A DNA stretch of 31,451 bases from an uncultured Oscillospiraceae bacterium. Lineage in GTDB: Bacteria > Bacillota > Clostridia > Monoglobales > Monoglobaceae. The notes beneath the pieces were generated by a model. It was given only the letters and a program-made list of their open reading frames with translations. It made no database searches and had not been told where the DNA came from. Each line of letters starts with the position of its first letter. Within the stretch, counting starts at the first letter, position 1. Below, piece by piece: positions 1,527 through 10,212 of the stretch. Position numbers and translations under genes: made by a program. Location: contig CAZTEA010000001.1 of NCBI GenBank assembly GCA_964612315.1, positions 1 to 31,451 on the forward strand, in the 5' to 3' direction.

Positions 1527-1553
1527 AAAAAAAGGACGGGAAATCCGTCCTTT
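1527..1553 (-). terminator. Intrinsic terminator ending the putative ncRNA
   Basis: Minus strand AAAGGACGG-auuuc-CCGUCCUUU, running into a 7-U tract in total. Confidence 0.85.
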
Positions 1554-1700
1554 ATATTAAAATCAGATTACAGACTCCCTCGTTTTCCGGTCCCCGCCGT
1601 TGCAGCTAAGGGGTTGATGAGATAATAACTTAACTGCAACGGAGACCTAATAATGAGGAGTACCGGCAATCTGAATGCCGGTCAAAACCGTATTATTTAC
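1527..1700 (-). ncRNA. Putative ~175-nt structured non-coding RNA of unknown family (6S-like rod or pseudoknotted fold)
   Basis: Bracketed by a perfect promoter and an intrinsic terminator; no ATG on the transcribed strand; several nested helices including a 12-bp stem with G-U pairs (GUUGCAGUUAAG/CUUAGCUGCAAC). No T-box motifs. Family not recognised. Confidence 0.7.
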
Positions 1701-1706
1701 TTTTTT

Positions 1707-1735
1707 ATTATACATAAAGCTTCCTATTTTGTCAA
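1707..1735 (-). promoter_or_regulatory. Consensus sigma-A promoter (TTGACA-17-TATAAT) driving the putative ncRNA
   Basis: Minus strand reads ttgaca aaataggaagctttatg tataat. Confidence 0.85.
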
Positions 1736-3870: not shown

Positions 3871-6351
3871 ATGTTTGAACAAAAACTTACCGAAAGAGCA
3901 AGAGAAGCAATTGCGCTTTCCGAGGATTGCGCAAAAGAAATGGGTCACAACTATATAGGAACAGAACATCTTTTGTGGGGACTTATAAGCGAAGGCGAAG
4001 GAGTTGCCGCAAAGGTACTGTCTTCAAACGGCCTGACCCCCGAAAAAGTAGAAAAGAAAATAGATGTTTTAATCGGCACAAGAGAGCCGATTGACGAAAT
4101 CACCACAGGCTTTACACCGAGAACCAAGTCGATTTTGGAGCGTAGTTATTCCGAGGCTATGCGATTGGGACACAGCTATATCGGAACGGAACATATCCTT
4201 ATTTCCCTGCTCCGTGAGGGAGGAAGCCTGGCTGTAAGAATTTTAAGTGACAGCGGAATAAGTATTCAAAAAGTCTATAACGATATTATAAAATCCGTTC
4301 AAGAGGATTCCGAGCAGGAAGAACGCCCCGACCGTTCCTCCCGTTCCGACTCTCCGAAAGGACGAGGCAAGGGAAAAACACCGACCCTTGATAAATTCGG
4401 AAGAAATCTTACCGACATGGCAAGAGATTTAAAGCTTGACCCCGTTATCGGCAGAGACAGCGTTATTGATAGGGTTATTCAAATTCTTTCAAGGAGAACA
4501 AAAAACAATCCGTGCTTAATCGGTGAACCCGGCGTGGGAAAAACCGCCGTTGCGGAGGGACTTGCCCAAAAAATAGTCAGCGGCTCCGTGCCCGAGGTGC
4601 TTAAAAACAAAAAGGTTATAACCCTCGACCTCTCCTCCATGGTGGCAGGTGCGAAATACCGAGGCGAATTTGAAGAGCGGTTAAAAACGGCTATGGACGA
4701 AATCCGCAAATCCGGCGACATAATCTTATTCATTGACGAAATCCATACCATAGTGGGCGCCGGTGCGGCTGAGGGTGCAATCGACGCGGCAAACATTTTA
4801 AAGCCTGCACTTTCTCGAGGCGAAATTCAAGTTATCGGTGCAACAACCATTAACGAATACCGAAAATACATCGAAAAAGATACCGCCCTGGAACGCCGTT
4901 TCCAGCCTATTCAGCTGGCCGAACCCACAGTTGAGGAAGCCATCGAAATTCTTAAAGGAATTCGTGACAAATACGAGGCGCACCATAAAGTAACCATAAC
5001 CGACAAGGCAATTGAAGCCGCCGTTAAAATGTCCGTTCGTTATATCCCGGACAGATTTCTTCCCGACAAGGCAATCGACCTTATCGATGAAGCGGCATCA
5101 AAAATCAGAATGAAAACCCTGACCGCTCCGCCGAGCATTAAAGAGTTAGAGGACGAAATAGACACCGTCCGCAAGGAGAAAGAGGCGTCAATCACCACTC
5201 AGGAATACGAAAAAGCAGCAAAACTGCGTGACAAAGAGCAGGCTCTTACCCAAAAGCTTAAAGAAACCAAAGAAAATTGGGAAAGCACAAGCAATTCCGC
5301 AATAAAAACCGTTACTCCCGAGGAAATCGCCGAAGTTATCTCAACCTGGACGGGAGTTCCCGTAAAATCCATTTCGGAAAACGAGGGGCAGCGTCTTTTA
5401 AAACTCGAAGAAACTCTTCATAACCGTGTTATCGGTCAAAACGAAGCGGTTGTATCAATCGCCAAGGCTATCCGCCGTGGTCGTGTCGGGCTTAAAGACC
5501 CCAAACGCCCAATCGGCTCATTCATCTTCTTGGGTCCCACGGGCGTTGGCAAAACCGAGCTTTCAAAAGCCTTGTCCGAAGCTATGTTCGGTGACGAGGA
5601 CGCTCTTATCCGTTTGGATATGTCGGAATATATGGAAAAACACACCGTATCCAGAATGATCGGTTCTCCTCCGGGATATGTCGGTCACGAAGAAGGCGGT
5701 CAGCTTACCGAAAAAGTTCGGAGAAAGCCGTATTCCGTTATTCTGTTTGACGAAATCGAAAAGGCACATCCCGATGTTTTCAACATCCTTCTGCAAATCC
5801 TCGACGATGGCGTTTTGACGGATTCCCAAGGCAGAAAAGTGGATTTTCGAAATACCGTCATTATTATGACCTCCAATTTGGGAGCAAGACTCATTACCGA
5901 AAGTAAAAATCTCGGTTTTTCCGCCGGTGATGACAAAAATACAACCCGTGATTACGAACAAATCAAGTCCGATGTTATGGGTGAAGTAAAACGGGCTTTC
6001 CGTCCCGAGTTTTTAAACAGAGTTGACGATATTATTGTATTCCATCAGCTTACCGACGACAATATTAAAAATATTGCCGAAAAAATGCTTAACAATCTTA
6101 AAGACAGATTGGCGGCAAACGGAATAGAAGCCAATTTCACGGCAAAAACAACAGAGGCAATTGCCAAAAAAGGTTTTGACCCGATTTACGGCGCAAGACC
6201 TCTCCGCAGGGCAATTCAGTCCGACATTGAAGACCTGATTGCCGAAAAAATGCTTGACGGCAGCATAAACGAGGGCGACCGAATAACCGTTGATTATGTA
6301 AAAGATAATTTCACCGTAAAGCATCGAAAAGCGTCAACCGCAAAAGAATAA
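3871..6351 (+). CDS. clpC: ATP-dependent Clp protease ATPase subunit ClpC
   Basis: Two Clp-N repeats ([20 protein letters not shown]), Walker A GEPGVGKT and GPTGVGKT, Walker B FIDEIH and [11 protein letters not shown] coiled coil; follows ctsR-mcsA-mcsB. Confidence 0.97.
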
Positions 6352-10137: not shown

Positions 10138-10212
10138 GGTACACCATCACGGACTCGAACCGTGGACACCCTGATTAAGAGTCAGGTGCTCTACCAACTG
10201 AGCTAATGGTGC
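10137..10212 (-). tRNA. tRNA-Lys (anticodon CUU), 76 nt, CCA encoded
   Basis: GCACCAT TA GCTC AGTTGGTA GAGC A CCTGA CT-CTT-AA TCAGG GTGTC CACGG TTCGAGT CCGTG ATGGTGT A CCA folds into a complete cloverleaf. Confidence 0.97.

Follow-up and report, generated by a model that had tools for sequence, protein, structure and literature searches.

The window, a stretch of 31,451 nucleotides from an uncultured Oscillospiraceae bacterium, contains between alaS and ctsR a genuine, structured RNA gene of ~175 nt, which its own promoter and terminator suggest is separately transcribed. It belongs to a previously undescribed family that is confined to four closely related uncultured gut and rumen Clostridia and whose members keep a common fold and two invariant motifs. 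We propose that the family consists of trans-acting, base-pairing small RNAs (sRNAs) that would block translation initiation, with glmU as the best target, and we give this proposal an even chance of being correct.

The RNA gene between alaS and ctsR

The gene lies on the minus strand and is flanked by alaS and by the ctsR-mcsA-mcsB-clpC operon. Its sigma-70-type promoter (1707-1735) consists of TTGACA (1735-1730) and TATAAT (1712-1707) separated by a 17-nt spacer; it scored 12/12, in keeping with the perfect promoter described in the earlier note, and would place the transcription start site (TSS) near 1700. An AU-rich spacer is followed by an intrinsic terminator (1524-1553, minus) with a 9-bp G+C stem (1553-1531), a 5-nt loop and a U run. 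From these two signals, which set both of its ends, we predict a primary transcript of ~174 nt (1527-1700). No ATG-initiated frame in the list of open reading frames falls between promoter and terminator, as had been claimed for this region, and the sole frame in the interval (33 aa, starting with TTG) has no visible ribosome-binding site ahead of it. Small-ORF readings were rejected on either strand, as the RNA strand has no ATG or ribosome-binding site and the covariation of its first hairpin (P1, below) is unlike that of a protein. Downstream, alaS has a promoter of its own (TTGACT-17-TATAAT with a TG, 1517-1489, minus) between the RNA terminator and the start codon at 1437. The earlier note had pointed to this second promoter and had read the element as a free-standing RNA gene and not as the alaS leader, and the separate signals of the two genes bear out that reading. 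The 174-nt transcript has a predicted minimum free energy (MFE) of -65.8 kcal/mol, compared with -40.2 ± 3.8 kcal/mol in dinucleotide shuffles (z = -6.8), and none of the 200 shuffles was as stable.

Two other elements of this intergenic region were noted in passing. In the alaS 5' UTR (1445-1488, minus), the segment UAUUAUGCGAAAGC could form a GC-GAAA-GC mini-hairpin; it is conserved across most of the aligned congeners, two showing a change of 1-2 bases, and is independent of the sRNA insertion. Towards ctsR, tandem GTCAAA repeats resembling a CtsR operator (1836-1866 and 1805-1832, plus) overlap a 12/12 consensus ctsR promoter and are invariant in all six aligned congeners. Farther away in the window (10140-10212, minus) lies a tRNA gene (Rfam tRNA, 69.8 bits) with the anticodon loop CUCUUAA, probably tRNA-Lys(CUU).

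In five congeners, the ctsR-alaS intergenic region is otherwise alignable but lacks a ~200-bp block that is present in this genome (1527-1715) and that runs from the -10 region of the RNA gene through its terminator. The divergent ctsR/alaS order, the CtsR operator, and the alaS promoter and 5' UTR are all conserved in the same five congeners. The earlier note had suggested that homologs be collected from the alaS/ctsR intergenic regions of related genomes; the congeners lack the block there, and covarying homologs were found at other loci. The alaS/ctsR arrangement itself is not an assembly artefact, since a 9.7-kb contig from run X3 spans it with one difference, and contigs from two further studies (X4 and X5) carry a ~90%-identical variant of the RNA gene joined to ctsR.

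Searches of the region 1400-1900 against Rfam returned nothing at gathering thresholds, and at E ≤ 10 gave chance-level matches only (best E = 0.17), the best of them being an L20 leader (20 bits against a cut-off of 58.7) and mir-3914. The loci of two paralogs (copies B and D, below) and of the orthologs in G005 and G002 likewise gave chance-level matches only at E ≤ 1, and none of the copies searched matched a known riboswitch or ribozyme class or RsaE. The earlier note had made novelty conditional on such a search, and no Rfam family matched. Its observation that T-box features are absent agrees with the lack of an RF00230 match at E ≤ 10, and we rejected a T-box also because the alaS promoter is kept in congeners without the element. 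Its suggestion of a divergent 6S-like RNA had to be abandoned. The 6S model RF00013 (gathering threshold 46.4 bits) had no match at E ≤ 10 in 1400-1900, and all nine congeners, including G002, G003 and G005, carry a canonical 6S RNA at another locus (84-91 bits), which led us to reject a 6S identity. The model also found no 6S RNA across the whole metagenome-assembled genome (MAG) studied here, though 9/9 congeners have one; the assembly consists of 291 contigs and is 91% complete, and this absence is probably an assembly hole. The RNA does resemble 6S RNA in its rod-like fold with an internal loop, its strong promoter and its alternative pairings. It differs in failing the covariance model, in being much shorter and in ending at a terminator hairpin, and its family is multicopy and lineage-restricted and coexists with canonical 6S RNA in the same genomes.

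Family members, fold and invariant motifs

Starting from a BLAST fragment that led to G005 (public record SVKF01, Oscillospiraceae bacterium), we searched for homologs with a motif pattern and with two covariance models, R1 and R2. The family so defined has six members in four independent lineages. Three are diverged paralogs within this genome, namely copy A at the alaS/ctsR locus (R2, 100.5 bits), copy B at C148:355-474 (98 bits) and copy D at C149:1090-1216 (77 bits), and the remaining three are T1 orthologs, one each in G002, G003 and G005 (128-136 bits). The RNA is accordingly no 'orphan', as the earlier note had called it. The T1 carriers are this genome's closest relatives (AlaRS identity 97%). 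Nothing credible was found with the models and pattern in the six other genomes of the genus, and no credible member in the other 111 genomes of the bacterial family or in the order (151 genomes, 147 besides the four carriers). In public genome collections there was no member beyond the G002, G003 and G005 records, which were the only true matches of a first pattern scan with 19 specified bases; its other matches were chance occurrences in unrelated phyla. Tighter pattern scans gave nine chance matches in metagenome collections, all discarded by the model, and none among viral contigs. Weak model matches in G029, G035, G047, G072 and others (E > 0.01, poor pairing) were taken as noise, and a short match inside a DUF2344 gene of G001, from a BLAST of the locus against 60 relatives, was read as chance.

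All members share the same order of elements: P1 (7 bp, with a 6-7-nt loop), the motif GUACUCCUCAUU, three or four A/U, P2 (5-6 bp), a bulge or small internal loop, P3 (10-14 bp), an apical loop of 18-23 nt ending in CUCAUCAACC, a 3' linker, a tail, an AU-rich spacer and a terminator, the spacer 5' of the terminator being common to copies A, D and T1. In copy A (minus strand throughout), P1 (1662-1682) pairs ACCGGCA with UGCCGGU (1682-1676/1668-1662) over 7 bp and is closed by the 7-nt loop UUCAGAU. Motif 1, GUACUCCUCAUU (1663-1652; segment 1648-1663 with the AUUA that follows), is invariant in all six members. The long hairpin (1589-1647), defined by MFE and covariation, comprises P2 (1647-1643/1593-1589), a 3-nt bulge (1596-1594), P3 (1642-1629/1610-1597) and an 18-nt apical loop (1628-1611), the 3' side of which holds motif 2, CUCAUCAACC (1612-1621). 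Motif 2 is also invariant in all members and is our proposed seed. These are the two invariant segments of the family, and both contain CUCAU. Beyond the hairpin follow the variable 3' strand of an internal loop (1588-1582), the purine tract GAGGGAGU (1581-1574) and the 3' tail AAUCUGA (1563-1569). The helices that had been picked out by eye in the earlier note, P1, the pairing of ACUCCUC with GAGGGAGU (1661-1655/1581-1574) and the outer GGUCU../..GACC helix, are all present, and its 12-bp stem with an 18-nt loop corresponds to a stem of 12-14 bp here.

Covariation among the members supports this fold. In a six-sequence alignment that was fitted to the model and draws on four independent lineages only, 97% of cells are paired and both sides of a pair have changed in 14 of the 23 pairs of P1, P2 and P3 (11 of 16 in P2 and P3 together). 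None of 500 shuffles reached 14 and slid controls gave at most 4, so the covariation check that the earlier note had proposed came out in favour of conserved pairing.

The 3' tail adds a second layer of structure. In copy A, it is complementary to UCAGAUU (1674-1668) of the P1 loop, as had been noticed from the sequence, and the same relationship recurs in every lineage with a sequence of its own: UCAGAUU/AAUCUGA in A, AUAUAGU/ACUAUAU in B, UCCGGC/GCCGGA in T1 and AGCCG/CGGCU in D. The complementarity extends over 5-7 bp, and the best partner of each loop is its own tail. By our estimate a perfect 6-7-bp match in a ~40-nt tail would arise by chance about once in 100-500 trials per lineage, and because of this rarity the loop-tail helix appears to be selected. 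Pairing of a hairpin loop with a downstream strand, kept by covariation, points to an H-type pseudoknot. Alternatively, the tail can pair with the first bases of motif 1 and the P1 3' strand, and this opens P1 and yields a rod whose base the tail forms; motif 1, single-stranded in the P1 form, is then partly paired with the tail, and its ACUCCUC (1661-1655) finds its partner in the purine tract. Between G005 and G002/G003, a base of the P1 3' strand changes from A to G together with both of its alternative partners, in P1 (U to C) and in the tail (U to C). This triple covariation is a single event, and it is what a two-state RNA predicts. One position thus covaries with both partners, and selection appears to act on the pseudoknot as well as on the rod, in agreement with the two folds that had been envisaged for this RNA. 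The energy gap between rod and P1 form is 0-6 kcal/mol, with the pseudoknot helix left uncounted.

Natural variants of copy A fit the same picture. Over 278 nt, the X4/X5 variant has about 28 differences and three indels. Among the differences listed, motif 1, motif 2 and the 5' strands of P2 and P3 are free of change, and the changes within helices are compensatory or wobble-compatible: in P1, 1678 C>T and 1666 G>A together turn a G-C pair into A-U, and the changes at 1606 and 1593 turn U.G into U-A. Both promoter hexamers are unchanged, and differences fall in the spacer (1720, 1725, 1727) and the TSS region (1699-1702). All three bulge bases (1596-1594) and the 3' linker have changed, and position 1622, next to motif 2, varies. 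Changes at 1574, 1577 and 1580 disrupt the MFE register, and a shifted 5-bp register stays possible. In X3, 1680 G>A converts a P1 pair to U.G.

The surroundings of the six members bear on whether the RNA might instead act in cis or be a mere repeat. T1 lies 3' of pnp, with a convergent AraC-type gene on its other side; in G005, where this was checked, it has its own promoter (TTGAAA-17-TATAAT) and terminator. A promoter, an intrinsic terminator and a non-coding interior, as expected of an independent transcription unit, are thus found for both copy A and the G005 ortholog. Copy D ends in a terminator, beyond which rnhA has a promoter of its own. Copy B, ~40 nt ahead of a GH3 glycosidase gene, has no recognisable terminator and a weak promoter only. 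At the site 3' of pnp in this genome (C25, ~5100-5300, minus), a promoter and a tRNA gene take the place that T1 has in the sister species; the loci of T1 and of this genome's copies are therefore not syntenic.

A cis-acting leader or attenuator of alaS, the GH3 gene (copy B) or rnhA (copy D) might be suspected from the same-strand gene that lies downstream at three of the four loci, and above all from copy B, which precedes its GH3 start with no intervening terminator. We consider such a role very unlikely. Beyond the RNA terminator, alaS and rnhA have promoters of their own; the alaS promoter and 5' UTR persist in congeners without the element; T-box features are absent; and the downstream genes are mutually unrelated. 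The G005 ortholog, with its own promoter and terminator and a convergent neighbour, cannot be a leader. The element could also be a functionless MITE-like hairpin, mobile or decaying: it is multicopy, missing at the syntenic site of congeners, and differs in location between species, with a tRNA gene in this genome at the pnp-araC site of its sisters. Against this stand strongly diverged copies that keep their pairing by compensatory changes, two invariant motifs, a promoter and a terminator, and a copy number of only three. The copies share motifs and fold only, and there are no terminal inverted repeats and no target duplications at the block borders, on which grounds we rejected a MITE and judge a repeat of this kind highly improbable.

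Candidate targets and proposed mode of action

We return to the proposal that the family pairs with mRNAs in trans. Invariance of an apical-loop sequence amid otherwise diverged paralogs is the hallmark of a pairing seed, and CUCAUCAACC, predicted to be accessible, is unchanged in 6/6 members and in the X4/X5 variant. The idea that the 18-nt loop pairs with a target, raised in the earlier note, fits this conservation. Exact complements of motif 2 (GGUUGAUGAGA) are few in the T1 carriers, and the one location that recurs is the start region of glmU (GlmU identified by NF010934, 616 bits). In G005 and G003, where the glmU start reads GAAAGGUUGAUGAGA-AUG, the complement runs from the Shine-Dalgarno sequence (SD) up to position -1 relative to the start codon; in G002 (...GAGU-AUG), 10 of its 11 bases are present. 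The predicted duplex between the T1 loop and glmU has 14-15 contiguous bp covering SD and AUG, with -24.5, -21.8 and -18.5 kcal/mol in the three carriers; background start regions that were equally strong numbered 0-1, 6 and 15-28 of 1438, by ortholog loop scored. Across the glmU start regions of 21 relatives, the match is found in 3/3 sister carriers and 0/18 non-carriers, and as the three carriers are close kin it counts as one evolutionary event. In the nearest non-carrier, G008, the glmU start reads GGUUGAUUGGUU (-12.6 kcal/mol). The 5' end of glmU is missing from this MAG, in which contig C29 begins at residue ~185, and copy A would pair over 11 bp only. On the sequences available, glmU is the best candidate target.

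Two side observations concern glmU and its gene cluster. A bifunctional GlmU is present in this genome and in G002, G003, G005 and G008; in G001, G004, G006, G007 and G009, five congeners that lack the sRNA, no GlmU (TIGR01173) scored above cut-off and only a 230-aa hexapeptide acetyltransferase was found, which could mean that the genus is truly divided in this respect or that the assemblies have a gap in common. Within the cluster on C29 (1796-1807, plus), a 12-mer identical to motif 1 occurs in the mfd coding sequence; it is in sense orientation and was judged a chance match.

The strongest candidates in this genome are two: a secreted-protein gene on C121, through its 5' UTR, and a gene on C18 for a 1469-aa secreted or surface protein, through its start region. 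The C121 UTR (~155 nt, its TSS placed behind a TTGACA-17-TAAGAT promoter) contains an exact 11-nt complement of motif 2 and, 27 nt downstream, a 9-10-nt complement of motif 1, in the right order for simultaneous antiparallel pairing with both motifs. Outside the family loci, no other zero-mismatch case occurred in four genomes, and each of the three paralogs is predicted to form duplexes of about -19 and -16 kcal/mol with this UTR. The site is not conserved in the orthologous UTRs of the sister species, and when the sRNA sites were blocked in constrained folding of the UTR, SD accessibility was predicted to stay the same. The start region on C18 contains GGUUGAUGAG. In a duplex scan of 1438 start regions of this genome, the top scores, including that of a site upstream of aspartokinase, were not above those of shuffled seeds, and predicted targets taken by themselves are accordingly weak.

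The C121 gene has a long structured 5' UTR (1752-1930, minus), the predicted fold of which hides the SD with an upstream U/C-rich tract. Its protein has a signal peptide (MKKLIGIF...) and no Pfam or NCBIfam match, and UTR and gene have paralogs on C18 (7165-7600) and orthologs in G002, G003 and G005. Upstream of copy D, a 335-aa ORF with no Pfam domain (C149, 1595-2602, minus) shares a C-terminal module of ~80 aa (54% identity) with the 1469-aa protein (C18, 6656-6892).

Given the glmU match in the sister species and the C121 UTR match in this genome, we propose that the apical loop occludes SD and AUG. The RNA would fold into P1, a single-stranded GUACUCCUCAUU pyrimidine tract and the P2/P3 hairpin, whose apical loop would display CUCAUCAACC; the 3' tail would either pair with the P1 loop, giving the pseudoknot, or invade P1 to give the rod. 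The loop motif would then bind GGUUGAUGAG sequences over the SD-to-start region of target mRNAs, and this pairing would block initiation of translation. Motif 1, which resembles an anti-SD sequence, may provide a second contact, its availability set by the equilibrium between pseudoknot and rod.

The features that support pairing in trans can be read in other ways. The RNA might bind or sequester a protein, as a sponge or scaffold in which the CUCAU tracts serve as recognition sites on a rod. In favour of this, the consensus promoter points to an abundant RNA, an internal loop interrupts the rod, CUCAU is shared by the two sequence-invariant tracts, and target prediction from pairing alone was not significant. 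The rod, however, is only ~120 nt long with a 7x7 loop, the 3' strand of that loop is not conserved, the four loci have no candidate protein partner in common, and the 6S form of this explanation is excluded by the silent RF00013 and the canonical 6S RNA of nine congeners; we regard it as rather unlikely. We find it less likely still that the RNA is a signal-responsive switch, with near-isoenergetic forms responding to a ligand, temperature or another trigger, or a self-cleaving catalytic RNA. Both alternative pairings do look selected from the triple change between G005 and G002/G003, and the two forms lie close in energy when the pseudoknot helix is not counted; that change is nevertheless one event, the terminator is outside the alternative pairing, conserved bases occur on one strand of the internal loop only, no known riboswitch or ribozyme family matches, and the sequence gives no hint of ribozyme activity. 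To a similarly low degree, we entertain a combination of the two ideas, in which a trans-acting bistable RNA would sense a signal through its pseudoknot/rod equilibrium, gate its two seeds accordingly and control glmU together with envelope proteins. The simpler proposal, a trans-acting sRNA that would repress initiation through its loop, is the one that we carry into the comparisons below.

Comparison with known regulatory RNAs

To our knowledge, the uncultured Clostridia of gut and rumen have so far yielded very few regulatory RNAs. The family adds a well-supported fold, with three covarying helices and a covarying pseudoknot/rod alternative, and it offers a concrete putative seed and a testable candidate target in the glmU ribosome-binding site. 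Its wider impact is limited, as its distribution is narrow and its function putative. Young, multicopy and changing its loci, it is a small natural case of sRNA origin, duplication and target acquisition.

RsaE/RoxS and the multicopy LhrC are base-pairing sRNAs of Firmicutes that occlude Shine-Dalgarno regions with pyrimidine-rich loop seeds. The family described here is like them in being encoded by stand-alone genes of ~100-200 nt with their own promoter and Rho-independent terminator, in carrying accessible C/U-rich motifs that are conserved among paralogs, in having several diverged copies per genome, and in its predicted pairing over SD and start codon. It is unlike them in showing no sequence or covariance-model similarity (no Rfam match, RsaE included), in its proposed seed, which is CUCAUCAACC and not UCCC/CCCC, and in its restriction to four species. 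A bistable pseudoknot/rod architecture is, as far as we know, no feature of the RsaE/RoxS and LhrC families.

Amino-sugar synthesis is under RNA control elsewhere in bacteria, through GlmY/GlmZ acting on glmS in enterobacteria and through the glmS ribozyme in Firmicutes. The RNA described here has no homology to either of these; its link to the pathway is predicted only, its candidate target is glmU and not glmS, and the predicted mode of action is occlusion of SD and AUG, in contrast to activation or self-cleavage. Were the bistable variant of our proposal true, the family would correspond in function to GlmY/GlmZ and to the glmS ribozyme while having an unrelated fold. If the glmU prediction holds, what all of these RNAs would share is control over a step of UDP-GlcNAc synthesis.
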